DNA of 64,000 nt, from positions 17,867 to 81,866 of the forward strand of contig CAUSLO010000001.1 in the NCBI GenBank assembly GCA_963532875.1, written 5' to 3'. Source of the stretch: an uncultured Clostridia bacterium (GTDB lineage Bacteria > Bacillota > Clostridia > Christensenellales > CAG-917). The translations under genes were made by a program, and so were the position numbers. Shown here in pieces: positions 1-48,114 of this stretch; the stretch's first letter is position 1; each line of letters begins with the position of its first letter. The notes beneath the pieces are model-generated. The model saw only the letters and a program-made list of their open reading frames with translations. It was not told where the DNA came from and ran no database searches.

Positions 1-306
1 AGTGTATCCGATGAGATAAATCGTCCAAACGTTATGCCATTTTCACCATTGAGTCCTGAAAAGATAAGGGAATATGAGGGAGACTTTAATATATGTGTAG
101 ACCTATCGGGAACGGTGGATAGTTTTTCAAATAAAGGAAATAAAGACAGAGCCGCAGCATGGAAATTTATGAAAAGTGTAAAAGAAAATACAATGCTATG
201 CATCCCAGCTAAAATATATGCGACGAAAGAAGTGCTATTTTTAAATGATCAATATGGTTTAATCTATTCAGCAATAAAATACAAAATTACAAAATTTAAA
301 AAATGA
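1..306 (+). CDS. 3' end of a probable ABC-importer substrate-binding protein (5' end outside window)
   Basis: Frame 1 is open from base 1, with no stop before the listed ATG at 34, and ends at TGA 304-306. That stop overlaps the ATG of the next gene (ATGA). The call rests on position directly upstream of two FecCD permeases and an ATPase; the 101 aa present show no diagnostic motif. Confidence 0.4.
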   Translation, partial: SVSDEINRPNVMPFSPLSPEKIREYEGDFNICVDLSGTVDSFSNKGNKDRAAAWKFMKSVKENTMLCIPAKIYATKEVLFLNDQYGLIYSAIKYKITKFKK

Positions 307-1304
307 AGAGTAGGCTAAATAATACACATAAGTTTATTATACTCATTATAGTATCGTTAGTTTTGATGTTTATTTTTTCTGTTTTATCTATGGTAATCGG
401 ACAAAAGAAAATAGCAGTTATAGAAGTGCTTAGAGCCTTATTTAAATATGATGGAAGTTATGATCACGAAATAGTTAGAGATTTTAGATTACCAAGAGTA
501 TTCGCTGGAATATTTGTAGGGGCATCGCTTTCAGTTACTGGTGCAATTATGCAAGGCAATACAAAGAACCCATTAGCAGACTCTGGATTGATGGGTATTA
601 CTTCGGGTTCAATGTTCTCAGTAATATTGCTAATGATTTATTTCCCACATGTTTCCATATATGGACGAATTGGCATTTCATGCTTGGGGGCAGGCTTGGC
701 GACAGGGTTAATTTATCTAATTGCTTACATAGGCAGAAAGGGATTAAAACCAGAAAGAATGATATTGTCAGGCATGGCAATTTCTACATTGTTTGGCTCA
801 ATTTCTACGGCGATAGTATTACAAAATGGTAAGACAGCAGAAATGGTTAGATACATGAGTGGTAGCGTCTCTAATGCGAATTGGGAGGAAATACTAGTTG
901 CTTTGCCAATATTTATAATAGGTATTATTTTAGCAATTGCGTTATCACGAACGCTCACAGTTATGAATTTAGGAGATGATGTTTCTTCTGGATTAGGGGC
1001 AAATATTCGTACTACAAAAGTTGTTAGTACAGTAATAGTATTTTTATTAAGCGCAATCGCATTTATAATAATAGGACCAGTTGCTTACATCGGGTTGATG
1101 GTCCCGCATGTAGTTAGAAAGGTGGTCGGAACAGATTATAGATTTGTATTACCAGGGTCAATAATCTTAGGAAGCACATTTATTTTAGTCATGGATTTCA
1201 TAGCGAGAAACATTCAAAGGAATCACGAATTTCCTATAGGAATATTAATTGCTATGATAGGTGTTCCATTCTTTATATTTATTTCTAGAAGGAGTCTAAA
1301 ATAG
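303..1304 (+). CDS. FecCD/BtuC-family ABC importer permease (iron-siderophore / haem / corrinoid type)
   Basis: 333 aa, polytopic and hydrophobic. Family signature region RLPRVFAGIFVGASLSVTGAIMQGNTKNPLADSGLMGITSG and C-terminal PIGILIAMIGVPFFIFI. Start overlaps the upstream stop. Confidence 0.9.
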   Translation: MKSRLNNTHKFIILIIVSLVLMFIFSVLSMVIGQKKIAVIEVLRALFKYDGSYDHEIVRDFRLPRVFAGIFVGASLSVTGAIMQGNTKNPLADSGLMGITSGSMFSVILLMIYFPHVSIYGRIGISCLGAGLATGLIYLIAYIGRKGLKPERMILSGMAISTLFGSISTAIVLQNGKTAEMVRYMSGSVSNANWEEILVALPIFIIGIILAIALSRTLTVMNLGDDVSSGLGANIRTTKVVSTVIVFLLSAIAFIIIGPVAYIGLMVPHVVRKVVGTDYRFVLPGSIILGSTFILVMDFIARNIQRNHEFPIGILIAMIGVPFFIFISRRSLK

Positions 1305-2368
1305 TGAAAACAAATATTAGTACTATCCTTCCAGTAAAAAGAAAACAAGTTATAATCATGATAGTTACCGCTATTGTTTTATTGCTTGTATTCTTTATCG
1401 CACTTCATATAGGTAGGGCTGGATTAACATATAAAGAAACAATATCTGCAATTTTTGGAATGGGGAACAGGTCAAATATAGATGTCATATATAAAGACAG
1501 ATTACCTAAAATTGTTCTGGGCATTCTAGTTGGAATAGGAATGGGAATATCTGGGGTGATAATGCAAGATATAATGCACAACTCATTGGCATCTCCAGGA
1601 ACACTTGGTGTAAGTTCTGGGTCAAGCGTTTTTGTAACTGTTTATATGCTTGCTTCTGGATTTGTCATAACAAAAAATGGAATTAATACAAAAACAGCAA
1701 CAGTTTTATCTAGTATAGGGTTACCCCTTGCTGCACTTTTAGGTGGAGTATTTTCAGCAATTTTAATATTCCTTTTGAGCAAAAAAAAGAAGGACTATTT
1801 CAGTGCTACTAGATTAATAATGATAGGTGTTGCCGTGAGTTCTCTATATGGGGCAATATCAATGTTTCTGGTCAACATATTAGACGAAAATAAAATTGAA
1901 TTAGTGCAACGTTGGCAGTCTGGTGAGTTATGGGGTACTGAGTGGAAGTACATAATCGTCTTAACCATTTGGTTAGCAATAAGCATATTTTTTGTTTATA
2001 GAGAAGCAATGGTATTGAATGTAATAAAGTTAAGTTATGAAACATCAAAGGCACTTGGAGTAAATATAGAAAAAAAGTTTTTATATTTCGCTACGATGTC
2101 TGTAGTGATGTGCTCTGGAGTTGTTGCCTTCGGTGGAAACTTTTTCTTCTTAGGATTAATAGGGCCACATATAGCAAGAAAGATGGTAGGAACAGATTCT
2201 AGAATTCTAATACCAACTGCAGGTGTTGTGTCTGCAATAATTGTTGTAATTGCAAATGCTTTTGGATCTGGATTAAAATTTTTGGCTAATGTACCAATAG
2301 GTATCATTATCTCAATATTCTCAGTTCCATATTTCATTTATTTGTTACTAAGAAAGAGTGAGGATTAA
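1304..2368 (+). CDS. second FecCD/BtuC-family ABC importer permease
   Basis: 354 aa. RLPKIVLGILVGIGMGISGVIMQDIMHNSLASPGTLGVSSG, paralogous to the upstream permease. GTG start overlaps the upstream TAG by 1 nt. Confidence 0.9.
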   Translation: MKTNISTILPVKRKQVIIMIVTAIVLLLVFFIALHIGRAGLTYKETISAIFGMGNRSNIDVIYKDRLPKIVLGILVGIGMGISGVIMQDIMHNSLASPGTLGVSSGSSVFVTVYMLASGFVITKNGINTKTATVLSSIGLPLAALLGGVFSAILIFLLSKKKKDYFSATRLIMIGVAVSSLYGAISMFLVNILDENKIELVQRWQSGELWGTEWKYIIVLTIWLAISIFFVYREAMVLNVIKLSYETSKALGVNIEKKFLYFATMSVVMCSGVVAFGGNFFFLGLIGPHIARKMVGTDSRILIPTAGVVSAIIVVIANAFGSGLKFLANVPIGIIISIFSVPYFIYLLLRKSED

Positions 2369-2370
2369 TA

Positions 2371-3213
2371 ATGAAATTTAAAGATAAAGATAAATTACTC
2401 ATGACTGCAAAACAAGATGCAGAGGCTGTGGAAACAGAAAATTTAAAGATTGGATATAATGACAACATTATTGTTGAGTCTTTAGATATGAAAATTGAAA
2501 AAGGTAAAATCACATCAATCATAGGAGCCAATGGGTGCGGAAAGAGTACTATTCTGAAGGCAATAGGACGAATCATAAAAAAGAAATCAGGCTCAGTATT
2601 TATAAATGGATATAATATTGAATACCAAAAAAGCAAAGATATAGCGAAGCAAGTCGCAATATTATCGCAAATACCTATAGCCCCAACATCACTTACTTGT
2701 TATGAATTAGTTTCATATGGTCGATTCCCATATCAAAAAGGATTTGGCAAAATGTCGCCAGAAGATAAAACAATTGTTAATTGGGCGTTAGAATCAACCA
2801 ATTTGACACAATTCAAAGATAGAGTGATTGGAAGTTTGTCTGGCGGGCAAAGACAGAGAGTTTGGATCGCCATGGCGTTAGCACAAAATGGAAACATCAT
2901 ATTACTTGATGAACCAACAACATATTTAGATTTAAGTTGCCAATTGGAAATCTTAGAGTTACTTGTTAAATTGAATAAAGAAAACAATACAACAATTGTG
3001 ATGGTTTTGCATGATTTAAATTTGGCAGCTAAATATTCTGATAATTTAATTGCAATAAAGGATGGCAAGATATTCAAAGATGGAAGCACAGAAGATGTGT
3101 TAACAGATAACATGTTGAGAGAATGCTTTGGGGTAATGGCAGAAATCATTAAGGATAAGGAAAGCAAAAAACCACTTTGTTTTAATTTTAAATTGGTAAA
3201 AGAAAATGAATAG
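2371..3213 (+). CDS. ABC transporter ATP-binding protein (FepC/FhuC-like)
   Basis: Walker A GANGCGKST, ABC signature LSGGQRQR, Walker B IILLDEPT, H-loop VLHDL. Starts 2 nt after the permease stop. Confidence 0.93.
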   Translation: MKFKDKDKLLMTAKQDAEAVETENLKIGYNDNIIVESLDMKIEKGKITSIIGANGCGKSTILKAIGRIIKKKSGSVFINGYNIEYQKSKDIAKQVAILSQIPIAPTSLTCYELVSYGRFPYQKGFGKMSPEDKTIVNWALESTNLTQFKDRVIGSLSGGQRQRVWIAMALAQNGNIILLDEPTTYLDLSCQLEILELLVKLNKENNTTIVMVLHDLNLAAKYSDNLIAIKDGKIFKDGSTEDVLTDNMLRECFGVMAEIIKDKESKKPLCFNFKLVKENE

Positions 3214-4534
3214 GTATAATAAAATAACTAAAATTATTTTTTGTATAATGCTAATAAGCATTACATTGTTATTGGCAACGGCATGCAATTCAAAGAAGGA
3301 TAAATGGTTCGCCGATGGGATTAAAACAACAGAATTAAAACAAGTTGAAACTGTAAACAATAGAGAAGACCTAACAAACCTCATGGATTATTCCGCATTT
3401 TATTCAAGAAGGGTAAAAGCAAAAATTTCAGAAAGTTATAAACAAAAATTAAAAGCGGAGTTTGATTTAGAAACTCGTTGGGCGGCACAATATGCAGACT
3501 TGGCACATAACGCAGAGAGAGTATTGGTATACGATGAAAACCTAGATCAAGGCGATATCGAAGTGCATTCTCAAATGCCAATTAGATATGGATTCAAAAC
3601 AGGAAATAACGGAGATGTACAAAAAATATATACGCTTGATTATTTTAAATTAACACGGCTAAAAAAAGATAAAGTCAAATATCAAGACTTAAGATTGTAT
3701 AAAAGCAATAAGGGATTTATAAAAGTAGAAAACTCAGAGCAACTTTTCTATGCGACATTAAATGGATACTTTCCAGTGTGGGACAAATCTAATAAAGTAA
3801 TAAAGACAATAATGGAGAAATGCCTTGAGGTTTTGTCTGTTCAACATAGTAAAAGCGAATTTGAACGGATTAGACGTACATATTTACATATGATTAACGA
3901 GGCGAACTACGATTTTGATACGCAGAAAAAAAAGACAAAAGATGATTACAGGGAATATGCTGCATACTACCTGGAGGGCTTCTTTTTTCATAAGCAAGCC
4001 GTATGTGATGGATTAACAAAAGCATATTCTTTGTTGTTATCGCTTGATGGATTTGAAACATATCATGTTGCAGATGTAATTAAAGGTGTTGGTGGACATG
4101 CATATAACTATGTAAAGGTTGAAGGGAAATATTATTTGTCATCAATAACGAATTCAATTCAAATAACCCGAGGTGAAAGGATTAGGGATTACAGATATTT
4201 CCTAGCTGATTACAAAGCAAACGATTTTGATGGATATAAATTTCAGTCAGAAGAATTCCCCCAAATTAAAGAGAAATTATTGAAAACGAAACCAATTAAT
4301 TATCATGAAAAATTTAGCGACGTAAAGTTGTCTTTAGTAACTAAAAAAATTAAAACAGAAAAGATTTCAGATATTAAAATGATTATTGAATATGCAAAAA
4401 AAATGTCAAGAGTCAAAAAAATTAAAATTGAGATTCCATTTCAAACCACAAGAGAAGTAAGAGAGCAAATTGCAAAAAAAGAAGATGTAGAAATTTTATG
4501 TACAGGATGTGAAAATTGGGCATGTTTCGTTTAA
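3206..4534 (+). CDS. lipoprotein with transglutaminase-like (Cys-His) core
   Basis: Leader MNRYNKITKIIFCIMLISITLLLATAC followed by NSKKDK. Core QAVCDGLTKAYSLLLSLDGFETYHV...GGHAYNYVKVEGKYYLSS resembles the transglutaminase-like/cysteine-protease fold (Cys then His). Overlaps the ATPase gene by 8 nt. Confidence 0.75.
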   Translation: MNRYNKITKIIFCIMLISITLLLATACNSKKDKWFADGIKTTELKQVETVNNREDLTNLMDYSAFYSRRVKAKISESYKQKLKAEFDLETRWAAQYADLAHNAERVLVYDENLDQGDIEVHSQMPIRYGFKTGNNGDVQKIYTLDYFKLTRLKKDKVKYQDLRLYKSNKGFIKVENSEQLFYATLNGYFPVWDKSNKVIKTIMEKCLEVLSVQHSKSEFERIRRTYLHMINEANYDFDTQKKKTKDDYREYAAYYLEGFFFHKQAVCDGLTKAYSLLLSLDGFETYHVADVIKGVGGHAYNYVKVEGKYYLSSITNSIQITRGERIRDYRYFLADYKANDFDGYKFQSEEFPQIKEKLLKTKPINYHEKFSDVKLSLVTKKIKTEKISDIKMIIEYAKKMSRVKKIKIEIPFQTTREVREQIAKKEDVEILCTGCENWACFV

Positions 4535-5925
4535 AAATAACTATAGTTATAGTTTTATTATTACTGTTATTTTCAACAGTCATTATCGCTTGTAATAAGA
4601 ACAACAAAAATAAAATAGCGAAACCAATACAATCTCAATACATTGATGAGATAACTGTTACTGGTGAACACAAGTTACAGACCCCAAAACGAACTATTAG
4701 TAGTAGAGAAGACTTTGTATATGCCTTAGATTATATGAGGTTTTATATGATTTCTAACTATGTTAAGTTTTTGATTGGTAAAGAGTACAAGTCAAAAATT
4801 TCAAGTATACATTATGAGTACGACATAGTTTCACAGTTATCCGACATTGCGGAGTTATCACCAAACAACTTAGATTATTCGCAATTTGAAACAGAAAGTA
4901 TAATTAAAATAAAAATTAGAGAAGGTAAATTTGCTACAAAACCCAACATGCAAGATAAGAGTAAAGAGTTCGCAAAGAATATTGATTATTTGGATGTGCT
5001 GAACAATAAGACTACTGAGTTCAACGATTTTTATACTGACAAATATAACAAAAAATTAAATGTTGAAAATTCAGAGCAGTTATATTATGCAGTGCAAAAT
5101 GGATACAGACCAATTGTGGCAAGTGGTAGTATCGCTGAAAAAATTTACAACGAAGGGAAAAAAATATTAAGAAGAATACTAGAACCAAATATGAGCGAAT
5201 TTCAAAAGGCCAAACAAATATTCAACTATCTAACTACAGAAATACAATACGGTTACGAGATTCTAAAGGATGCACATGCTGGAAATATCGAACCATACGC
5301 ATATTACTTAGAAGGGGTTTTCCTAACGCAATCGGCAGTTTGTGATGGGAGAAGTAAGGCATATGTTTTTTTGCTCGCCATGGCAGGTATAGAGAGTAAG
5401 AGGGTTACAGCAAAAGACGATGAAGGAAACGGACACGCATACAACTATGTAAAAATTAATTCAAAATGGTATTTGTCTTGTACTACATATGGGCAAGTAA
5501 ACGATAACAGTAATCAATTAAATTTAAATAAGAGCCTTATTTATTCAAGATATAATATGCTATATACAACTAAAGATACCGAACTAGGTATTGATTCAAG
5601 TGGCAAAAATGCGTGGAAGTATAAGTCTTTAAAGTGCATGGATATATATGAAAAGATAGAGGCTAACGTGCCAAAATTAACAGAGTATCAATTTAAAAAT
5701 CAGACCGAACTTAAAACATATTTAAATAGTCAAATAGATAAATTCATAGAGAAATATAAGAATAGCAGATATCCAAAATATACAACTATGCAAGCTGAAA
5801 TAAAAGAAGGGGAACTAGACACAGATTTGATTGAAAATTTAAACACATCAGAAGTAACCCTTAGGCTTATTAAAAATAGATCCACAAGTACAAATTTATA
5901 CACAGTGATTTTTCAATTTCTCTAG
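4522..5925 (+). CDS. paralogous transglutaminase-like lipoprotein
   Basis: Leader MFRLKITIVIVLLLLLFSTVIIAC followed by NKNNKNK. Shares VENSEQLYYAVQNGYRP, YYLEGVF..QSAVCDGRSKAYVFLLAMAGIE and GHAYNYVKINSKWYLS with the upstream gene. ATG 4522 is preferred over the listed TTG 4516. Overlaps the upstream gene by 13 nt. Confidence 0.75.
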   Translation: MFRLKITIVIVLLLLLFSTVIIACNKNNKNKIAKPIQSQYIDEITVTGEHKLQTPKRTISSREDFVYALDYMRFYMISNYVKFLIGKEYKSKISSIHYEYDIVSQLSDIAELSPNNLDYSQFETESIIKIKIREGKFATKPNMQDKSKEFAKNIDYLDVLNNKTTEFNDFYTDKYNKKLNVENSEQLYYAVQNGYRPIVASGSIAEKIYNEGKKILRRILEPNMSEFQKAKQIFNYLTTEIQYGYEILKDAHAGNIEPYAYYLEGVFLTQSAVCDGRSKAYVFLLAMAGIESKRVTAKDDEGNGHAYNYVKINSKWYLSCTTYGQVNDNSNQLNLNKSLIYSRYNMLYTTKDTELGIDSSGKNAWKYKSLKCMDIYEKIEANVPKLTEYQFKNQTELKTYLNSQIDKFIEKYKNSRYPKYTTMQAEIKEGELDTDLIENLNTSEVTLRLIKNRSTSTNLYTVIFQFL

Positions 5926-5998: not shown

Positions 5999-8900
5999 AT
6001 GTCAAAAAACAAGAAGTTAGTAGCACTTTTGCTAAGTATTCTTTTAATTGCTGTTGTGGTTTTTTCAGTAACCGCATGTACAAGAAAGAAAAAACCCAAC
6101 GATAAAAAGCAACAAGAAGAAAAAATTAAAGAGATCAAGAAAAAACAAAGCACACTTGATGAACTATATGACTTTATGAAAATTAAAAACATGGAGTTTG
6201 ATGTAGAGTCTGAAGGAAGTAAATTCAAGACATATGCAACAGAGAGATACTCATATAACACAGAAAAGAATCTTGGATTTGTAAATTTTGACTCGTGGGT
6301 TCACGAATTCAGTATAGATAACAATGAAGTTAAGATTGGAAGAAGAACTGCTAGAACTATCGGATTTCCACATTATCTTAAGGGTGAATATGCAAGAAAA
6401 CAATTCTTCTCAATACAAGCCTCAATGAGAGATAAAGATATGTATACTATTGCAAAAATACATCAAGGTGGTTATGAGTTCAAAGTTGAAGGGAATGTAG
6501 CAGAAACAACTAACAGTAATGTAATAGAATCAGTCGCAAATTCATTAGGTAGCAAGATTCCATTTGATAAATTAGTAAAGGCAGTATTCAAAATAGAGAA
6601 CAACAAATTAACCATTAAGTTGATTGCAGATAACGGCGAGACTGGTGTTGAAGCTACAATGGTTAAAGAAGAAAAGAGTATTTCATCTGTTGATAGTTAT
6701 TTAGCAAACAATAGCAATTATGAGACTCCAGTAAAAATGGATGAAAGCAACAATGTTATTAAAAGTATAAAAGAATTAATCAGCAACAAGACACAAGCAT
6801 ATAAAATGCAAATCCTAGATTATTCACACATAATCGCTGGAAGAACTCAAGAAGATATTCAAGGTGAGAATGATTGGGAAAAGGCAACAGCAAAAAAACA
6901 TGAAATCATACAATACTTTGGGGCACAAGAAGCATTTAAATATAACAGTCGTACAAAAGAGTTTTATAACTTCAAAGAAGTAAATTCAAGAAAATTGGCT
7001 ATGTATGGTACTTACGAAAATTCTCAATTTAGAATGCAATCAGAAGCAGATGATTATAAATTTGCAGAACAAAATTTGATAGAAACTATATTTGCCAACA
7101 TGGACAAAATCAGTTATTTTGCAAAAACAGATGAGTACATATTGGATTATAAAAATATCCCAGGGTTTGAGGATTTATTAAAGGCAGTACTTCAAATTCA
7201 AAACAAGAACTTTTTTAATGAAAATAAAATTGACACGGTTACATTAACAGTTATTGACAACAAGTTAGTTGTAAATGTAAATAGAAAAATATTGGATAAA
7301 GAATCATTGAGTAGCAAAATGGTTGATAATGCCGTTGCTGTTCAAGCGATAATAGAGTTTTCTAATAAGTTAGACAATGTTTTTGAAGCGGATACTTTAG
7401 CTAAATTAGAAGCAGAGTATATTTACAATAAGTCTGAAGAAATTTCTAACGAATTGGGCGAACTTGTTAATTTAATGCAGGCAGAAGCACTTACATTCAG
7501 CACAGATGAACAAGTACAATATGATGAAATTATAAATGCAATAAAAAATAATACTATTGCCACATATGCCACATGTTTAGAAATGGAAAGTAAGAGTAAA
7601 ACACTTATAGATTCTGTACAATCTAGATCTAAAACAATATTGAAAAGGACAATTTTAGAACATATAGCAGATGTAAGAAAAATAGCAGACAATAATTTAT
7701 TAGATACAACGGTGGAAATTCTTAGAGACACGTTAGCAGTAATAGATGAGAATTTAGAAGTAGTGAACAATCCAGAAACAACAAAGGAAACATTAAAAAC
7801 AATAAAAGAAGGATTTGCAGACGCTCTTAATCAAATGATTAACCTTATTAAACCAAGGTTAATTCAAGAAACTCAAGATGTTAAAGGAATAGAGTTAAAT
7901 GATGGTAATGGATACTTGTATACGGAAGACAGCATAAAGGAATTTCTCGATGGCGTACAAGAATTAGAAAATGATTTGAAGACTGTTGATGACATGGTTG
8001 ATCGTGCAAAGAAACTTCCTATAGTAAGAAACACTTTAAAGGTACTTACACGTCAAGAAGAAAGAGAAATTGAAGGAATGAGAGTTTGGTATTCAATGCC
8101 AATAGACGTATTCATTGATTCTATTCAAGGCACTATTGAAAACGTTAATAATGCATTCAATGCACTAGGCGTTGTAAAACGTCCACAAGCATTGGAAATG
8201 CTTGGCAGATTGAGAACAATTTATAATAATTTAAAATTCTTAAAGCCAAGAGAAAAAGAGGTTACTGCATATAACCAAGTTAAGGGACAAATAGAAGCAT
8301 TAAAGGCGGATGCACGTTATGCTACATTATCAACAGAACTAAAAAGAAGAGTTGATGAGCTATTGCATCATTCAGTTGATAATTTAGAAGACATTTTGAA
8401 AGTTACCGAGAGTATGTCAACAATTGTTAAAGATGTAACTAAGGAGCTAAGTAACGATGAATTAAAGGCAGAAATTAGCACATTTATTGATAATAACGCA
8501 GTAAATGCAGAAGAATATTCTAACGGTGAAGCATATAAGAAATTGTTGGAAGAAATTAAGGGGAAAATTACAGATGCTGAAGCAGATAGTTACGAACAAT
8601 TGATTGAGTATAAGACACTTCTGAACCAAGCAAAAGATAAACTAATCAAAAAGACAGAAGTTGCTACGGATGAAGTTAAAAAACAAAACCTTAAAGATTT
8701 AAAAGAAAAATTTAAATTATTCTATAACGGTGATATTCCAACACAATACCAAGCAGAGATTACAGATACCATAAATGGCAACAAACAAACATTAATATTT
8801 AAGAATAATCAATACGTATTTAACCTAACAACTAGAAAAGGAATTTATAAAGAGAAGGCAAATAGTGAAGATTATGTGGGTTACAAAATAAATGCAGAAT

Positions 8901-9733
8901 TAGGTAGTGATAATCAAATTATATCAAGCGAAACTAATTATTTAGAAAGTAACACAATTACAGGACACCTTAGACATCAAATAGAAAAAAGCACATTTAA
9001 CAAGAATAACACAGTGTTGAATGGCAAGGGATTTACGTATTTGGATGATGAAACTGATAGTCCTACAGTTCCAGTTGGAATAGCAAAAATAATAGCATTA
9101 CTACAATATAAAGATATAGACAGAGTTGTTGCTGTAAATAATAGCGATAATACAGTAACCCTTATTGGATATAGAAAAACAAAGAACTTGAAAGTTAATG
9201 ACAATGACTTCGCATATTATGAAGTATTCAGAATGAAGGCTACTGCAGAAATTGATAGCACAATTGATGAACAAATCACATCTAGTATGAATGCAAGAAA
9301 AGCAAGGTCATGGGAAGAAATTAAAAACAAAGTAGATGGAACATATAAGGTTGAATATCAAACAGAAAGAAATGTAGCATCATATGGATATAGTGATTCA
9401 AAAACAATTATAGATGATATGATTTTGAGAAGAAACGGAGAAACTTCTCACAAATTAGGATTCACAAGTAATTATCAAAGTAGCGAAGAAAAACAACTAA
9501 AAATGAAGAATGACATTTCTGAGTTGATTAAGGATATCATAGATGGTATTAACGATAAGAACGAGAAAAATCCAGAAATAGATAATGAGAATATACTTCG
9601 TAGATTCAGAGATGTATTTGGAATTGATCAAAGTTCTGATGAATACATTGGATTGATGAAAGTTGGAAATGAACTTTTGATGGAATATAACAATAGAGAT
9701 ACAAGTTACAAATTCGCAATACAGTTTAAATAA
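5999..9733 (+). CDS. large lipoprotein, predominantly helical/coiled-coil, function unknown
   Basis: 1,244 aa. Leader MSKNKKLVALLLSILLIAVVVFSVTAC followed by TRKKKPNDKK. The middle ~700 aa are rich in heptad-like charged helices (e.g. ALEMLGRLRTIYNNLKFL, EAYKKLLEEIKGKITDAEADSYEQLIEYKTLLNQAKDKLIKK). Good RBS. Confidence 0.85.
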   Translation: MSKNKKLVALLLSILLIAVVVFSVTACTRKKKPNDKKQQEEKIKEIKKKQSTLDELYDFMKIKNMEFDVESEGSKFKTYATERYSYNTEKNLGFVNFDSWVHEFSIDNNEVKIGRRTARTIGFPHYLKGEYARKQFFSIQASMRDKDMYTIAKIHQGGYEFKVEGNVAETTNSNVIESVANSLGSKIPFDKLVKAVFKIENNKLTIKLIADNGETGVEATMVKEEKSISSVDSYLANNSNYETPVKMDESNNVIKSIKELISNKTQAYKMQILDYSHIIAGRTQEDIQGENDWEKATAKKHEIIQYFGAQEAFKYNSRTKEFYNFKEVNSRKLAMYGTYENSQFRMQSEADDYKFAEQNLIETIFANMDKISYFAKTDEYILDYKNIPGFEDLLKAVLQIQNKNFFNENKIDTVTLTVIDNKLVVNVNRKILDKESLSSKMVDNAVAVQAIIEFSNKLDNVFEADTLAKLEAEYIYNKSEEISNELGELVNLMQAEALTFSTDEQVQYDEIINAIKNNTIATYATCLEMESKSKTLIDSVQSRSKTILKRTILEHIADVRKIADNNLLDTTVEILRDTLAVIDENLEVVNNPETTKETLKTIKEGFADALNQMINLIKPRLIQETQDVKGIELNDGNGYLYTEDSIKEFLDGVQELENDLKTVDDMVDRAKKLPIVRNTLKVLTRQEEREIEGMRVWYSMPIDVFIDSIQGTIENVNNAFNALGVVKRPQALEMLGRLRTIYNNLKFLKPREKEVTAYNQVKGQIEALKADARYATLSTELKRRVDELLHHSVDNLEDILKVTESMSTIVKDVTKELSNDELKAEISTFIDNNAVNAEEYSNGEAYKKLLEEIKGKITDAEADSYEQLIEYKTLLNQAKDKLIKKTEVATDEVKKQNLKDLKEKFKLFYNGDIPTQYQAEITDTINGNKQTLIFKNNQYVFNLTTRKGIYKEKANSEDYVGYKINAELGSDNQIISSETNYLESNTITGHLRHQIEKSTFNKNNTVLNGKGFTYLDDETDSPTVPVGIAKIIALLQYKDIDRVVAVNNSDNTVTLIGYRKTKNLKVNDNDFAYYEVFRMKATAEIDSTIDEQITSSMNARKARSWEEIKNKVDGTYKVEYQTERNVASYGYSDSKTIIDDMILRRNGETSHKLGFTSNYQSSEEKQLKMKNDISELIKDIIDGINDKNEKNPEIDNENILRRFRDVFGIDQSSDEYIGLMKVGNELLMEYNNRDTSYKFAIQFK

Positions 9734-9742
9734 GAATTAATC

Positions 9743-9772
9743 AGAGCAGCATACATTATGGTATGCTGTTCT
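9743..9772 (+). other. intergenic stem-loop (possible partial terminator or processing/attenuation site)
   Basis: AGAGCAGCATAC / ATTATG loop / GTATGCTGTTCT: a 12-bp stem with one G-U pair. No U-tract follows. The ATG listed at 9758 lies in the loop. Confidence 0.5.
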
Positions 9773-9778
9773 AGACTT

Positions 9779-10534
9779 ATGAAAAGAATAGCAATATATG
9801 GGAAAGGTGGAATAGGTAAGACAACAACAGTTTCTAATTTAGCAACAATACTTGCTAAACAAGGTAATGTGGTCTTACAAGTAGGTTGTGATCCTAAGGG
9901 GGATTCAACCATTCTTCATACTCACGGCAAGAGAATCAATACAGTTTTAAATGCATATATAGAAAAAGGAGAAAATCTTGAAATCAGCAATTTTCTAGTT
10001 GAAGCAGATGACGGAGTCCTATGCATAGAGGCTGGTGGTCCTACTCCAGGAACTGGATGTGCTGGTCGTGGAATAATAACAGCGTTTGAAAAAATTAAAG
10101 AATTAAAAGTGTTTGAAAAATACAAACCCGATTACGTCTTATATGATGTCCTTGGAGATGTTGTTTGTGGTGGGTTTGCAATGCCAATAAAGAACGGATA
10201 TGCAGATGAGTTGTATGTTGTAACATCTGGTGAAATGATGTCATTATATGCAGCAGATAACGTAATAGAAGCCGTTAGAATAAATAAGAATCCAAGCATT
10301 GCAAAGTTTAAGGGCGTTATACTTAATAAGAAAAATATAGAAAATGAAGATGAAACAGTCTTAAAATTTTGTAAAGAGAAAGGTGTAGATTTAATACAAA
10401 TTATAGAACGATCACCATATATTCAAGAAGCTGAGAAGAACAGCAATACCGTAGTGCAGCAATTTCCAGACGCAGAAATAACGAAAAGATATTTTGAATT
10501 GGCTCAAAAGATAAGTGGGAAAAATGAACAATAA
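9779..10534 (+). CDS. NifH/BchL/CfbC-family ATPase (nitrogenase iron protein-like, 4Fe-4S)
   Basis: 251 aa from ATG 9779 (MKRIAIYGKGGIGKTT). Walker A GKGGIGKTT, switch I GCDPKGDST, cluster ligands in GTGCAGRGIIT (Cys 10058-10060) and YDVLGDVVCGGFAMP (Cys 10166-10168). Confidence 0.9.
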   Translation: MKRIAIYGKGGIGKTTTVSNLATILAKQGNVVLQVGCDPKGDSTILHTHGKRINTVLNAYIEKGENLEISNFLVEADDGVLCIEAGGPTPGTGCAGRGIITAFEKIKELKVFEKYKPDYVLYDVLGDVVCGGFAMPIKNGYADELYVVTSGEMMSLYAADNVIEAVRINKNPSIAKFKGVILNKKNIENEDETVLKFCKEKGVDLIQIIERSPYIQEAEKNSNTVVQQFPDAEITKRYFELAQKISGKNEQ

Positions 10535-11081
10535 CTTACAACATTGCAACATGGATATAATAGCGGAAGAGTTATCTTGTTATGGAGATATAACTATCCT
10601 AATACTTGGGGCTCATGAATGTTCATATTTCGTCCATAAATTTTCTAACGACAATATTTATTCATATTTGCTAACCGATAAAGAATTGGCTTTGGGTAAT
10701 TATGATGAATTAATTGAGAGTATAAAAGAATTAGAATCCAATAATAGAAAGTTAGTAATAATATCAACTTGCATTGCTCAAATGGTAAATATTCGTGCTG
10801 ATATAGAATTCGAGTTAGGGGCAAGAACAGTTTTCATAAACGGCTCAGATTTTAAAACGTGTGCAGATATTTTACAAACTTTATATGAGCAACTTTTGTT
10901 AAAAGAGAACATTGAAATCAAAGATAAAAAATCTATGTTAAAAGAAAACTACAATAACTTCGAAGAATTACGTGATGATATTTTCTGCAAGCAAGTATTA
11001 TATAACGATAAAAAATACGAATTGATTCTTAATCATTTACAAGACAAAGATGGGGTAATTGCTACATATGCCACTAATTAA
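10524..11081 (+). CDS. short nitrogenase component-1-like protein (first domain only), Cys-bearing
   Basis: 185 aa; overlaps the NifH-like gene by 11 nt. By eye it matches the conserved N-terminal domain pattern of NifD/K-BchN/B-CfbD proteins: GAHEC (Cys 10620-10622), LLTDKELALGNYDEL and VIISTCIAQMVNIRAD (Cys 10770-10772). Confidence 0.55.
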   Translation: MNNNLQHCNMDIIAEELSCYGDITILILGAHECSYFVHKFSNDNIYSYLLTDKELALGNYDELIESIKELESNNRKLVIISTCIAQMVNIRADIEFELGARTVFINGSDFKTCADILQTLYEQLLLKENIEIKDKKSMLKENYNNFEELRDDIFCKQVLYNDKKYELILNHLQDKDGVIATYATN

Positions 11082-12216
11082 AAACGGCATAGTGCCAAGT
11101 GTGAGACACAATCTATATAAACAATTAGAACTAATAACAGACTTGGCTTTGTTGGATCTATCTGGTAAGGGGCATGCACTGTACAACTTAGGGCATAATT
11201 CCTTGTTACATATAAAGCAACCAAACAGCGATAATTTATTCTCTTTGCCACTTACAGATGCAGAAGTTGCAGTTTCAAATTTTGACAGAGTATATAAAGA
11301 GATTGAAACAATTCTTGATAAGGGTTACAAGAATTTATTTTTGATGCCATCTGCAATTGCAAAACTAACAAACTTTGATTACGAGCAGTTAAGATTTAAT
11401 ATTATAGAAAAATTCAATTTGAATGTTTTCTATTTGGCTGATAGTGATGAGAAAACATTTTTAACAAATACCATATTCAATTTAAATTCGCAGGCAAATA
11501 GAACTAATAACCCAAAGGATGGATTCTCTATTTTAACGCCAGTATTTAGTTATGAGAGCAAAAGAGATGCACGATATGTAAAGCATTTTATCGAAACGAC
11601 CTATGACGTGAAATGTGTCTTCAGCAACGCCGAGCGATTCAACTTATCTGACGTGACTAATTTATATAACAGTCAGGTAATAATAACGCTGAGCGATGAT
11701 TTCAGCGGACTTGCCAATAGATTAGATAAAGACACTGAACTCATTTCTTGTAATCATATAGACCTAAAAAATGAAAGCAATTTCATAACTCAAGTCAATG
11801 AAATTTTCAACAAAAGTGTTGAAGTAAAATACCAAAAAGAGTACCAAATCATAGCGGAACAATTTAAAAATGTAATTAAATTTTCAGGCACACAAATTGT
11901 GATTTTTCTTGAAAATAATTTAAACGATAGGTTGAATAACTTTTTCAAAAGTTTAGACATCACAGTTGAAATATACACGCCATATACAAGTGATAAATAC
12001 AAAACTATTTCAATAGATGAATTTATTCAAGAATACAAGGATGGTAATCAAATAATAATCTCATACGATCGAATAGTCCGAACATTACACAGAGGCATAA
12101 CTCTTGAGTCATTAGGGTTAGATTATTATCTAATTGCACCAACTCCAAGTAGAAGAATAATGACTAATGGTGCGTTTTCTTTGATGGAGGAAATAATTAA
12201 AAATATTAACTTATGA
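11068..12216 (+). CDS. nitrogenase component-1-like protein, Cys-less at the canonical ligand positions
   Basis: 382 aa from ATG 11068 (listed TTG 11059); overlaps the upstream gene by 14 nt. Same N-terminal pattern with substitutions (NLGHNSLL; LPLTDAEVAVSNFDRVYKEI; LFLMPSAIAKLTNFDYEQL), followed by further alpha/beta-looking domains. Confidence 0.5.
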   Translation: MPLIKNGIVPSVRHNLYKQLELITDLALLDLSGKGHALYNLGHNSLLHIKQPNSDNLFSLPLTDAEVAVSNFDRVYKEIETILDKGYKNLFLMPSAIAKLTNFDYEQLRFNIIEKFNLNVFYLADSDEKTFLTNTIFNLNSQANRTNNPKDGFSILTPVFSYESKRDARYVKHFIETTYDVKCVFSNAERFNLSDVTNLYNSQVIITLSDDFSGLANRLDKDTELISCNHIDLKNESNFITQVNEIFNKSVEVKYQKEYQIIAEQFKNVIKFSGTQIVIFLENNLNDRLNNFFKSLDITVEIYTPYTSDKYKTISIDEFIQEYKDGNQIIISYDRIVRTLHRGITLESLGLDYYLIAPTPSRRIMTNGAFSLMEEIIKNINL

Positions 12217-12591: not shown

Positions 12592-13035
12592 TTAGCATTC
12601 AAATACAAACGACAGTGGTCCGTCTTGTTGTTGTTCAATATACATGTGTGCCCCAAATACGCCGTTCTTAACAGTTATGCCTTCATTTTGAATTTCTTTT
12701 GTGATGTATTCATAAAGTTCTCTAGCACGTTGCGGCTCTTCAGCAAGGTAGAAGTCAGGTCTGTTGCCAGTTCCTTTACCCAGAGTCCCTGCAAGTGAAA
12801 ATTGAGAAACGAGTAGGATTTCGCCACCCGCTTGTTTGATATTAAGATTCATTTTTCCATTCTTATCACGGAAGACACGCAACTTGGCCATTTTAGTAGC
12901 AAAGTATTTTGCTTGCTCAAAAGTATCACCTTTAGTTATGCCAAGGAAAATAGTTAGACCGTTTGGAATCTCGCTTATTAACTTGTCATCAACAAATAAT
13001 TTTGAATTGAATGTTCTCTGTATTAATGCTCTCAT
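12592..13035 (-). CDS. dtd: D-aminoacyl-tRNA deacylase
   Basis: 147 aa. MRALIQR N-terminus, SQFSLAGTLGKGTGNRPDF (SQFTL...G.RP.F motif), C-terminal FGAHMYIEQQQDGPLSFVFE. Typical Dtd length. Confidence 0.93.
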   Translation of the reverse strand: MRALIQRTFNSKLFVDDKLISEIPNGLTIFLGITKGDTFEQAKYFATKMAKLRVFRDKNGKMNLNIKQAGGEILLVSQFSLAGTLGKGTGNRPDFYLAEEPQRARELYEYITKEIQNEGITVKNGVFGAHMYIEQQQDGPLSFVFEC

Positions 13036-13056
13036 AGAAGTAGTCTAGAGGGAATA

Positions 13057-13085
13057 TTGAAAAATGTAAACTGCTATGTTAAACT
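13057..13085 (+). promoter_or_regulatory. candidate promoter for the hexosaminidase/deacetylase pair
   Basis: TTGAAA (13057-13062), 17-nt spacer, then TAAACT (13080-13085) preceded by TG (TGtTAAACT). RBS GAGGT at 13093-13097, ATG at 13103. Confidence 0.45.
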
Positions 13086-13102
13086 TTTTTTTGAGGTAAA
13101 TT

Positions 13103-14656
13103 ATGAAAATCGTTCCAAAACCATTTTGCGTAGAATACGCAGAAGGTATATTTGTTTTCAATAAGAAAACTAAAGTTGATGTAGAAGAATATATATATAA
13201 CGAATTATTCTTTCTAGATTTTGATGAAGTTGTCGAAAACAGTGTAGAAATTAATATTTCTGACATTGAATTTGACTACATCATAGAGATTGCAGATAAA
13301 ATTAAAATTACGTTAAAAGATGAGAAGCAGTTATTCTATTCCGTTCAATCATTAAAACAATTGATTTTTGAATACTACAATGACGGAAAAAGCGAAATTC
13401 CATATATGACAATCAAAGATAAAGCAAAAATGGAATATAGGGGATACATGTTGGATATTTCACGTCATTTCTTTGGCTTAGATGTAATTAAACAAGTAGT
13501 AGACTGTATATCGCTGGCTAAAATAAATAAGTTGCATTTACATCTATCAGATGATCAGGGATTTAGAGTTGAGAGTAAAATATATCCTAGACTTAACGAA
13601 ATAGGCTCTGTACGTAAAGAAACCTATGGTGATGGGAAAGAACATCGTGGATATCTAAAACAGGAAGAAATTAAAGAACTAGTTGAATATTGCGATAAGC
13701 GAGGGATAGAAATAATCCCAGAAATTGATCTACCAGGGCATACTGTTTCAGTGATTGCAAGTTATCCAGAGTTATCATGTTTCAATACTAAAATTGAAAC
13801 TGCAACATGGGCAGGAATTAATTACTATGTATTATGTTTAGCAAATGAGAAAGTTTATGAATTCATAAGCAACTTGTTAAAGGAGATTTTAGACTTATTC
13901 CCTAGTAAATATGTACATTTAGGGGGCGATGAAGCACCAAGTTATAGTTGGTCGCTATGTCCAAAGTGCCAAGAATTATATAAAAAATCAGGTGTAAAAG
14001 GCTATTACGAGTACCAATTATTATTTACAAATAAAGTTGCAGAAATTGTTAAAGGATTAGGTAAAGTGCCAATAATGTGGAATGAAGCATTTTCTGGTGG
14101 TATGAATAAGGATGCAGTAATGCAATACTGGTCAGAGGATTTTAGAAAGAAAGTTGGAGCCAAGCATACAGCAAATGGGCAAAAGACTATAATAAGCCGA
14201 AGAACTTCACATTATCTTGATTATCCACATTATCCAACATCAATGAAAAAGGTATATAAATATAATCCAAAGCGAGATGGATTCAAGAGAATGGATAATA
14301 TTCTAGGATTTGAAGCACCATTGTGGTCAGAATTTGTACCAAATACTGAAAAACTATTTAAAAATACATTCCCAAGAGTATTTGCACTTGCGGAAGCAAC
14401 TTGGAGCGAAAATAAGAATTATAGGGACTTTAAAAATCGTCTATGCAACCTTTTGGGTATAATGGAAGCATATGAATATCCATACGAAGAGTTGAAAAAT
14501 GTTGATTCAAAGAGTATCCCAAATATTCATAAAGTAATCAAGTTTGGTATGGGATTTGCAAAGGCGGCGAATCATAAAGAGAAAGAAAATCAAAAGAAAA
14601 AAATATTAGAAATATCTAAATCGAACGGATTAGATACTTATAAACAAGAAAAATGA
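13103..14656 (+). CDS. beta-N-acetylhexosaminidase (GH20)
   Basis: 517 aa. GH20 catalytic-domain motifs RGYMLDISRHFF, NKLHLHLSDDQGFRVE, IPEIDLPGHT, HLGGDE, and W near the C-terminus (PLWSEF). Confidence 0.9.
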   Translation: MKIVPKPFCVEYAEGIFVFNKKTKVDVEEYIYNELFFLDFDEVVENSVEINISDIEFDYIIEIADKIKITLKDEKQLFYSVQSLKQLIFEYYNDGKSEIPYMTIKDKAKMEYRGYMLDISRHFFGLDVIKQVVDCISLAKINKLHLHLSDDQGFRVESKIYPRLNEIGSVRKETYGDGKEHRGYLKQEEIKELVEYCDKRGIEIIPEIDLPGHTVSVIASYPELSCFNTKIETATWAGINYYVLCLANEKVYEFISNLLKEILDLFPSKYVHLGGDEAPSYSWSLCPKCQELYKKSGVKGYYEYQLLFTNKVAEIVKGLGKVPIMWNEAFSGGMNKDAVMQYWSEDFRKKVGAKHTANGQKTIISRRTSHYLDYPHYPTSMKKVYKYNPKRDGFKRMDNILGFEAPLWSEFVPNTEKLFKNTFPRVFALAEATWSENKNYRDFKNRLCNLLGIMEAYEYPYEELKNVDSKSIPNIHKVIKFGMGFAKAANHKEKENQKKKILEISKSNGLDTYKQEK

Positions 14657-15456
14657 TACAGATAGAAGAGTATATACCAAAGACTGCAAGACACGTGCCA
14701 ATTACCCATATTGCTATAGCCGCACACAAAGATGACGGCGAGATGTTGGCGTTGCATGGAATATTAAATTGCTATGATAAGGGTGGATTTGCCCTAATTG
14801 TTCTAACAGATGGAGGGAACTGCCCCAAAAGCGGTAAATATGCAGATGTTTCATATGATGATATGGCTGAATTACGTACGGAAGAACAAAAAAGGGCAGC
14901 GACATTTGGGAAATATGAAAAAGTGTACTTTCTGCAGTTGCCATCTTCATCTTTAGAAACAGATTTTGACGAAATTTCATCAAAAGTAGCGACGATTTTC
15001 AATGAAAATCCAACGATCAAATATGTTTATGCACATTCATTGTTTGATAGACATAAGACACATATAAATGCTAGCAAAATTGCAATTGAGTCGATTAGAC
15101 AGTCTAAAAATAAGGAAAAAATAAAGATGCTCTATGGAGTTGAACTGTGGAGAGACCTTGATTGGATACCTGAAAATGAACAAATTTTACTAGATGTTTC
15201 TGGTAGTAAAGATTTCGCAATGGAGTTGTTATCATTTTTTCCTAGTCAAAATCAATCAAAGATGTACAATAAGGGTTTTTGCGGAAGAGTTGTTGCCAAC
15301 GCAACATTCTCTAATTCACATTCAAACAGTCTAGCGTCCGAGCAAATAAGGGCAATAAACATGACTAAACTTGTTTTTGCCGATAAAAAAGCAGTTAGAG
15401 CGTTCGTGGACGAGAAACTTGAAAAATTTAAACAAGAGATTTTAACCTCTTTTTAG
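14653..15456 (+). CDS. PIG-L/LmbE-family N-acetylglucosaminyl deacetylase-like protein
   Basis: 267 aa. IAIAAHKDDGEM corresponds to the AHPDDE metal motif, and FDRHKTH to the HxDH motif. ATGA start/stop overlap with the GH20 gene. Confidence 0.65.
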   Translation: MIQIEEYIPKTARHVPITHIAIAAHKDDGEMLALHGILNCYDKGGFALIVLTDGGNCPKSGKYADVSYDDMAELRTEEQKRAATFGKYEKVYFLQLPSSSLETDFDEISSKVATIFNENPTIKYVYAHSLFDRHKTHINASKIAIESIRQSKNKEKIKMLYGVELWRDLDWIPENEQILLDVSGSKDFAMELLSFFPSQNQSKMYNKGFCGRVVANATFSNSHSNSLASEQIRAINMTKLVFADKKAVRAFVDEKLEKFKQEILTSF

Positions 15457-48039: not shown

Positions 48040-48114
48040 ATTACTTATTTTGCTATTGTATTAAACGCTCATTTTTTTGTATTATTAATATATATAATAT
48101 AAAGGGTGGTCGTT

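Follow-up and report, generated by a model that had tools for sequence, protein, structure and literature searches.

A truncated, three-cysteine alpha-type subunit encoded beside a Cys-less beta-type partner in a nitrogenase-like locus of an uncultured Clostridia bacterium

Nitrogenase-like enzymes are usually described as requiring two full three-domain subunits around a bridging cluster. A 64-kb stretch of DNA from an uncultured Clostridia bacterium (the window, by which we mean the whole stretch that was analyzed) raises the question of whether so much protein is always needed. In this window, a nifH-like gene is followed by a gene for a protein of 185 amino acids (aa) and a gene for a protein of 382 aa, and an earlier note on the sequence had described the first as a single Cys-bearing domain and the second as a complete Cys-less partner. 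Is this unequal pair the catalytic part of an enzyme or the outcome of a broken gene, and how could it hold a cluster? The three genes are as follows.

9758 to 10534, plus strand: NifH-like ATP-dependent reductase; probable start Met8 at 9779; Pfam Fer4_NifH, 6.8e-83
10524 to 11081, plus strand: truncated alpha-type subunit of 185 aa, domain I and a tail of ∼60 aa; ATG at 10524, TAA ending at 11081
11068 to 12216, plus strand: full-length, Cys-less second (beta-type) subunit of 382 aa; ATG at 11068, TGA ending at 12216

Our reading, to which we assign a probability of roughly 60%, is that the pair consists of real, separately translated, and coupled genes for the catalytic component of an ATP-dependent nitrogenase-like reductase, with the cluster on the small subunit and an imported cargo as the substrate. 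Homology, folds, residue positions, selection, and synteny are shown by the analysis; the type of cluster, its ligation by a His, the pairing of the subunits, and the substrate are inferred. Below, the 185-aa protein is called alpha-small, the 382-aa protein beta-large, and the relative loci L001 to L031.

Results

The small subunit is essentially a single domain with three Cys at ligand positions

Three Cys residues of alpha-small occupy cluster-ligand positions.

10545 to 10547, plus strand: Cys8 codon, first cluster-ligand position (NifD C62 / ChlN C22), in QHCNMD; H7-C8 invariant in 71 sequences
10620 to 10622, plus strand: Cys33 codon, second cluster-ligand position (NifD C88 / ChlN C47), in GAHEC; E32-C33 invariant
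10770 to 10772, plus strand: Cys83 codon, third cluster-ligand position (NifD C154 / ChlN C107), in IISTCIAQ; T82-C83 invariant

The three residues are invariant in an alignment of 71 alpha-type proteins, and the triad is kept in register among proteins down to 16-20% identity, which is beyond what chance would give. The earlier note had given the exact coordinates of Cys33 and Cys83 and had missed a third ligand-position Cys, Cys8. In a weak alignment (E 0.65), Cys8, Cys33, and Cys83 are in register with C22, C47, and C107 of ChlN. By way of the full-length relatives the position of the triad also matches the motif Cys residues of NifE and NifD, and the correspondence to NifD C62, C88, and C154 was assigned by numbering.

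The identity of alpha-small was traced through proteins of intermediate length. Forms of 185 or 187 aa, which share 56-96% identity, sit at the equivalent operon position, and for the close relatives P0007-P0046 and P0048/P0049 PF00148 matches had been precomputed. Residues 6-156 of alpha-small align with the 341-aa protein of L001 (BLASTP 1e-16, 30% identity), and the comparison with a 434-aa form gives an hhalign probability of 91%. The 434-aa alpha of L008 in turn matches NifE (3.5e-17) and NifD (∼1e-14), its Cys residues falling on the NifE motifs SC, GPIAC, and ATC and on the corresponding NifD motifs. The alphas of the relatives therefore come as a size series of ∼417-436 aa, 327-353 aa, and 185-187 aa. 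Within the 327-353-aa group, mean pairwise identity is 29% in the C-terminal part versus 43% in the N-terminal domain; a stage with a compact, less conserved C-terminal part preceded the truncation to 185 aa.

In a 431-position hidden Markov model (HMM) of alpha-type proteins, alpha-small spans only positions 33-211. Its AlphaFold2 (AF2) model has a mean predicted local distance difference test (pLDDT) score of 75.5 and contains a Rossmann-like domain of four strands; block-mean pLDDT values are 68-95 for most of residues 10-130. The closest folds in the PDB, the top ones at a probability of 1.00, are domain I of MarDK, BchN (120 columns, root-mean-square deviation (rmsd) 2.8), NifD, and NifEN. 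The description of the 185-aa protein as essentially a single first domain is upheld. The assignment of alpha-small depends on the intermediates, synteny, and fold taken together, and on these grounds it is the subunit at the NifD/NifE/BchN position, cut by C-terminal deletion to domain I. It retains the Cys triad that binds the iron-sulfur cluster between the subunits throughout the superfamily.

A separate feature of the longer relatives concerns Cys residues beyond the triad. The full-length alphas of L008, L010, L028, L029, and L031 contain a fourth conserved Cys in the motif HF[KA]C, which does not occur in the clade of compact and truncated alphas. By our reading of the sequences, this segment corresponds to the region of NifK Ser188.

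The large subunit is complete and lacks ligand Cys

Two positions in beta-large correspond to Cys ligands of better known proteins.

11173 to 11175, plus strand: His36 codon, at the position of NifK C95 / NifN C44 / BchB D36 and candidate fourth ligand, in GKGHALYN; opposite a Cys in three independent PDB alignments
11353 to 11355, plus strand: Ala96 codon, at the position of the NifD C154-type Cys, in LMPSAIA; the lpSs segment lies opposite NifE ATC

Beta-large alone has no Pfam match. An exhaustive profile search returned 141 cluster representatives of 370-420 aa, 88 of which were used to build a family profile. This profile matches a NifEN fusion (1e-58), a NifD-like chain (1e-33), and BchB (6e-27). 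The AF2 model (pLDDT 90.4, predicted template modeling score 0.90) is a complete three-domain fold, and in Foldseek it superimposes on NifK with a template modeling (TM) score of 0.75 and on ChlB, AnfK, and NifN with a TM score of 0.76 each. By sequence, beta-large is about equally close to NifE and NifD; the beta-type label was chosen because of the gene order and the structural matches to second subunits.

None of the 88 relatives has a conserved Cys at the beta ligand sites, and there is none in the ligand columns of their N-terminal domains. The Cys-less second subunit is a trait of the entire family and is not peculiar to the window locus, and the earlier description of the 382-aa protein as a complete multi-domain partner devoid of ligand Cys agrees with both the three-domain model and the family-wide count. 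Of the two segments that had been proposed as equivalent to the ligand motifs, LFLMPSAIAKL was chosen correctly, and NLGHNSLL lies seven residues downstream of the true site, GKGHALYN. Position 96 is Ser, Ala, or Thr across the family. Gly35 never varies, and Arg13, Ser95, and Asp104 rarely do.

Two NifD-like chains (GPIGC) and the NifN portion of a NifEN fusion (GAQGC) place the Cys of these motifs opposite His36; a MarD chain is the exception and has Gln there. Within the 21-sequence subfamily that holds the window protein, His36 is invariant. We take His36 specifically to be the HG.QG[C/D] position, based on our reading of the sequences and on established knowledge, and it is probably also the position of BchB D36. 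The correspondence to NifK C95 and NifN C44 follows the numbering of Dos Santos et al. 2012.

Both genes are real, coupled, and under selection

Whether the short alpha gene reflects an error or decay can be judged from the junction of the two genes.

11068 to 11081, plus strand: 14-nt overlap of the alpha stop and the beta start (ATGCCACTAATTAA); the design is kept at 10-20 nt in 13/13 relatives, whatever the length of alpha

This overlap couples the translation of alpha and beta. The two ORFs overlap in different frames, as they would if a sequencing frameshift near 11059-11081 had split one gene, an explanation that the earlier note had raised. We regard it as virtually excluded. The identical 14-nt ATG..TAA overlap is found in four independent assemblies at 58-67% identity to the window, similar overlaps occur in every relative, also where alpha has ∼417-436 aa, and beta-large starts with the conserved N terminus of its family, MPLIK..P..R, which is shared by the partners of the ∼417-436-aa alphas. 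In addition, the 185- or 187-aa length recurs on well over 100 contigs, with single sequences of the 187-aa form found on 49 and on 27 contigs. The kept overlap and the many contigs with the 187-aa form rule out a frameshifted single gene, as does the ratio of nonsynonymous to synonymous substitution rates (dN/dS).

The dN/dS values are 0.11-0.125 for the small gene and 0.11-0.13 for the large gene, and ∼0.05 for the nifH-like gene, at unsaturated synonymous rates (dS) of ∼0.5-0.7. The small gene is therefore under purifying selection, like its partner. These values bear on a second explanation, in which the alpha gene broke, the 185-aa frame is what is left of it as it decays, and this lineage no longer has an active system. 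The loss of more than half of the ancestral protein and the poorly modeled C-terminal tail speak for it. However, the dN/dS of ∼0.12 equals that of the partner, on which ground a pseudogene was rejected; the three Cys and the partner His36 are invariant at 56-67% identity; the length is fixed at 185/187 aa on the many contigs and the coupling overlap is kept; and there are neither in-frame stops nor leftover fragments. We consider decay very unlikely. The earlier suggestion of a degenerate variant holds only for the missing domains, and what is retained is a gene under selection.

The same note had also considered gene fission, in which case the missing alpha domains might be encoded at another place. 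When all six frames of the 64-kb window were searched with the HMM, no remnant of alpha domains II-III was found, and the N terminus of beta is conserved beside full-length alphas, so this idea was dropped. With frameshift, pseudogene, and fission set aside, it follows that domains II-III of alpha were deleted from the C-terminal end.

Three observations on the relatives concern the lengths and ends of alpha genes. The ∼340-aa alphas (L001, L006, L013, L016, L017, and L020-L022) end in a Cys (LCH, LCR, and similar). Because the TGC codon overlaps the ATG-CC of the partner, this Cys is probably imposed by the reading frame and not functional; its conservation is explained by the overlapping frame, and it was rejected as a ligand. 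L010 (867-7447) contains two tandem alpha/beta pairs after one nifH-like gene and a flavodoxin gene downstream; the second alpha has 340 aa and covers HMM positions 3-326. Finally, the P0203 cluster (90% identity) mixes 433-aa NifE-like proteins with 259-aa ATP-binding cassette (ABC) ATPases named from Phascolarctobacterium faecium, which suggests either that a fused ABC-ATPase/NifE-like protein bridges the cluster or that the clustering is an artifact.

The reductase is NifH-like

The nifH-like gene ends 11 nt inside the start of the small gene. Its translation shows a Walker A sequence, GKGGIGKTT, and both motifs with the cluster Cys, CAGRG and VCGGF. Against NCBIfam, the highest score is with CfbC (295.6 bits), followed by NifH (291.6 bits), both below cut-off (402 bits for CfbC), and the BchL model gives 170.7 bits against a cut-off of 345. 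The closest PDB match is Clostridium pasteurianum NifH (4.7e-70), and the PDB scores are 239 bits for NifH versus 142 bits for BchL.

The genes end an importer and lipoprotein operon

Upstream of the nifH-like gene the window contains the following genes.

1 to 306, plus strand: 3' end of a substrate-binding-protein gene (Peripla_BP_2 type); phmmer 2.7e-11 versus the L006 Peripla_BP_2 protein; the window begins within the gene
303 to 1304, plus strand: FecCD-family ABC permease 1; Pfam PF01032, 4.3e-87
1304 to 2368, plus strand: FecCD-family ABC permease 2; Pfam PF01032, 8e-73
2371 to 3213, plus strand: ABC ATPase of the iron-chelate/heme/B12 importer class; Pfam ABC_tran; NCBIfam FecE 293.8 bits (cut-off 375)
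3206 to 4534, plus strand: lipoprotein of 442 aa, weakly transglutaminase-like; signal peptide, lipobox LATACN; Pfam Transglut_core E 0.0017, below cut-off; syntenic in relatives
4516 to 5925, plus strand: transglutaminase-like lipoprotein of 469 aa; Pfam PF01841, 1.3e-7; PDB 9crn_A, 2.6e-4; lipobox IIACN; motifs CDG and GHAYNYVK
5999 to 9733, plus strand: 1244-aa lipoprotein, fold without a match; signal peptide, VTACT; no Pfam or PDB match

All of these genes run in one direction, in the order substrate-binding protein, two FecCD permeases, ABC ATPase, two transglutaminase-like lipoproteins, large lipoprotein, NifH, alpha, and beta, and parts of this order recur in L003-L006, L011, and L014-L025. 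For permease 1 the top NCBIfam models are the Fe(3+)-siderophore, FecC, and BtuC permeases, every one below its cut-off. A complete substrate-binding-protein gene is present at the equivalent position in L006 (3240-4307) and L016. The transporter lies directly 5' of nifH in L001, L006, L016, and L031 and between nifH and alpha in L008, and distant relatives, too, adjoin Peripla_BP_2/FecCD/ABC genes.

The lipoproteins at 3206-4534 and 4516-5925 are paralogs with a transglutaminase-like Cys-protease core and the motifs AVCDG and GHAYNYVK. They accompany the nitrogenase-like genes in synteny even at loci with a beta of only 21-26% identity, and the block that runs from the transglutaminase-like lipoproteins to NifH, alpha, and beta is kept at that identity in L014-L025. 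A lipoprotein of 1025-1240 aa occupies the position of the 1244-aa lipoprotein in L003-L005, L011, and L017-L019, and in L017-L019 it is recognizable as the large lipoprotein between the transglutaminase-like lipoproteins and nifH-alpha-beta. Searches of the lipoproteins against PDB sequences returned one weak transglutaminase-like match and nothing else.

The rest of the window, which has a GC content of 33%, encodes ordinary chromosomal neighbors at 12592-15456 and 42027-62647: a D-Tyr-tRNA deacylase (minus strand), a GH20 hexosaminidase, a PIG-L deacetylase, a GTP-dependent phosphoenolpyruvate carboxykinase, an acyl-CoA synthetase-like enzyme, RpiB, and V-type ATPase subunits. Between and among these lie two giant open reading frames (ORFs), at 15559-41940 (8793 aa, with the lipoprotein-type signal peptide STFAACT) and at 48106-57837 (3243 aa, no Pfam domain at E ≤ 1e-4). 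The window contains no match to a tRNA or any other Rfam family.

Discussion

A proposed model for the reductase and its candidate fourth ligand

In the proposed model, alpha and beta would pair as the subunits do in NifDK, NifEN, and BchNB, and a dimer of the NifH-like protein from the upstream gene would dock over the alpha/beta junction. ATP hydrolysis would then drive the transfer of one electron to a [4Fe-4S] cluster, for which the small subunit would provide Cys8, Cys33, and Cys83 as ligands. The fourth iron would most likely be completed by His36 of the large subunit, in parallel to the three Cys and Asp36 of dark-operative protochlorophyllide oxidoreductase (DPOR) and the three Cys and NifN-Cys44 of NifEN. 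From the cluster, the electron would pass to a substrate held mainly by the large subunit, a role we give to beta because domains II-III of alpha are absent. The proposal of the earlier note that the cluster site comes mainly from the small subunit, with the large subunit supplying the rest, fits all of the data.

The main uncertainty of this model is the fourth ligand. A serious alternative to ligation by His36 is a site-differentiated cluster. Protein ligation would then come from the small-subunit Cys triad alone, and the fourth iron, open or with a bound water, would bind the substrate directly in the manner of aconitase, IspH, or radical-S-adenosylmethionine (radical-SAM) enzymes; His36 would act as an acid/base or second-sphere residue. 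Position 36 alternates between His and Thr across the family, no single non-Cys ligand is kept throughout, and without alpha domains II-III the cluster would be exposed, all of which this alternative accommodates. Nevertheless, His36 is strictly invariant in the subfamily of the window and stands exactly at the fourth-ligand place of DPOR and NifEN, and the characterized [4Fe-4S] sites of nitrogenase-like enzymes are, as far as is known, all fully protein-ligated. On balance, we find an open iron unlikely, if well worth keeping in mind. A swap of the fourth ligand between His36 of beta and the HF[KA]C Cys of alpha was also considered and rejected since the HF[KA]C Cys co-occurs with both His36 and Thr36 partners.

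The operon suggests what the substrate could be. FecBCD-type transporters import ferric chelates, heme, or corrinoids. The nitrogenase-like genes stand at the end of a conserved FecBCD-type importer/lipoprotein operon, and therefore the substrate is most likely imported cargo; judged from the gene neighborhood, it would most likely be an iron chelate or a metallo-tetrapyrrole.

Several results pull against this overall picture. For the assignment of alpha-small, the direct evidence is weak: its match to PF00148 (E 1.7e-4, 21 bits) falls below the cut-off of 28.6, it scores only 14.7 bits with an HMM of full-length alphas alone, the Foldseek E-value of its model is ∼1e-3, and its C-terminal 60 residues are modeled as low-confidence helices. 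For His36, the 88 family members divide into 44 with His and 42 with Thr, so that half of the family has Thr; the proximity of His36 to the Cys triad follows from alignment only; and five of the six full-length alphas bear the HF[KA]C Cys, with His36 and with Thr36 partners alike, from which we conclude that His36 is not a universal fourth ligand. For the substrate, the binding proteins match the NCBIfam models of IsdE, FepB, FecB, and BtuF only weakly, some relatives are without an adjacent transporter on the recovered contig stretch, Rfam searches of the window and 11 related loci gave no family and hence no cobalamin riboswitch, and scans for Fur boxes gave scattered matches inside genes and no convincing box.

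The conserved association with a metal-chelate-type ABC importer would also suit a different role, in which the pair is a NifEN-like scaffold or metal-handling module that receives the metal after import and uses it for building or repairing a metal cofactor. The coupling of metal transport to cofactor assembly was suggested by Dos Santos et al. 2012 (PMC3464626), and NifE and NifEN are among the best sequence matches of the family. This role is less attractive because the part of alpha deleted here is precisely the part with which NifE holds its L-cluster, and because NifB, radical-SAM, and other cofactor-biosynthesis genes are absent from the operon and from the window ORFs examined; no acceptor enzyme is evident. 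A scaffold therefore strikes us as improbable, somewhat more so than the open-site cluster.

A more specific form of the preferred reading, a reductase with the cluster on its small subunit, can be offered only tentatively. Here, the pair would be a minimal catalytic component, with alpha reduced to a single cluster and docking domain that carries a [4Fe-4S] cluster with three Cys and one His or with an open site, and with substrate binding left entirely to the Cys-less beta. This component could be the cytoplasmic end of an unrecognized capture-import-reduction pathway in gut Clostridia. The transglutaminase-like and giant surface lipoproteins would feed the FecBCD-type importer, and the ATP-driven, low-potential reductase would act on the cargo, for example in the oxygen-independent processing of heme, a chlorophyll catabolite, or a corrinoid.

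If correct, a selected, domain-I-only alpha indicates how little protein suffices to hold the cluster and, presumably, accept electrons from the Fe protein, and it points to the Cys-less subunit as the substrate-binding site. The wider family is common in gut Firmicutes, with relatives named Phascolarctobacterium, Christensenellales, Epulopiscium, and Ca. Fimimorpha. The linkage to an importer and lipoproteins is a testable lead to the oxygen-independent, ATP-driven reduction of an imported metal complex, and the small alpha would make the system convenient for biochemical and structural work.

Comparison with known systems

The closest precedent is the clade described by Dos Santos et al. 2012 (PMC3464626), in which the NifEN-like genes of C. 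botulinum (CLM_0808/0809) and Alkaliphilus oremlandii (Clos_0313/0314) lie downstream of nifH and an ABC-transporter ATPase. In that description the NifE-like protein keeps three P-cluster Cys and the NifN-like protein none, and both the Asp of DPOR as a precedent and the linkage to a transporter were noted. The window shares the order NifH-alpha-beta, the 3-Cys alpha, the Cys-less beta, and a nearby ABC transporter, a likeness judged by description. Each of the four features (3-Cys NifE-like protein, 0-Cys NifN-like protein, nifH upstream, adjacent ABC ATPase) is present in the window and relatives, and because the family fits the 2012 description feature by feature, the Cys asymmetry was already known. 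Unlike the window, where alpha has 185 aa, the Dos Santos clade has a full-length NifE-like protein, and the three lipoprotein genes between transporter and nifH set the window apart.

DPOR was the precedent named in the earlier note, and rightly so. A review describes an inter-subunit [4Fe-4S] cluster with three Cys from the first subunit and one non-Cys ligand from the second, and places BchB Asp36 at the position of a NifK Cys. The likeness extends to alpha-small, whose Cys fall on ChlN C22/C47/C107 and whose model fits BchN domain I at an rmsd of 2.8, and to beta-large, which fits ChlB at a TM score of 0.76. In contrast to DPOR, the fourth position is His36 here and Asp36 of the B subunit there, and BchN is a full three-domain subunit that helps to form the pigment pocket. 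The reductase is NifH-like rather than BchL-like, and the neighbors are transporter and lipoprotein genes, with no chlorophyll genes nearby.

NifEN provides both the best sequence matches of the two subunit families and an asymmetric 3+1 [4Fe-4S] cluster, to which NifE contributes three Cys and NifN its C44 (numbered as in Dos Santos et al. 2012; established knowledge). However, NifN keeps a Cys, the L-cluster domains of NifE are missing here, and there is no nifB, nifX, or nifDK in the window. CfbCD resembles the window system as a simple, [4Fe-4S]-only nitrogenase-like tetrapyrrole reductase, and the NifH-like protein scores highest with the CfbC model, albeit below cut-off. CfbD is a single subunit with a symmetric homomeric site, whereas the window encodes two unlike subunits with Cys on one only.

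The group VI NflHDK proteins of Elusimicrobia (Méheust et al. 2020) are likewise highly divergent D/K-like proteins that have four or fewer of the six P-cluster Cys and for which a tetrapyrrole-related role was proposed. They differ in having radical-SAM surroundings instead of FecBCD-type importers and lipoproteins, and no truncated D subunit was reported for them. Nitrogenase proper (NifDK/VnfDK/AnfDK) has six P-cluster Cys, three per subunit, as opposed to three in alpha and none in beta here. The region that holds the iron-molybdenum cofactor is absent, as alpha-small ends at HMM position 211 of 431, and there is no nifB or nifEN among the window ORFs examined.

Literature searches returned no description of the alpha truncation and no functional study of the clade beyond Dos Santos et al. 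2012, and the accessible part of a 2026 review of nitrogenase-like systems gives no function for the Dos Santos-type clade and describes no truncated D/E subunit. Taken together, the pair has the component 1 superfamily fold, as predicted for beta by its profile and three-domain model and for alpha by its domain I folds, and it is neither nitrogenase nor DPOR nor CfbCD. The 3-Cys/0-Cys layout has been known since 2012; the truncation of alpha to its cluster-bearing domain appears to be new.

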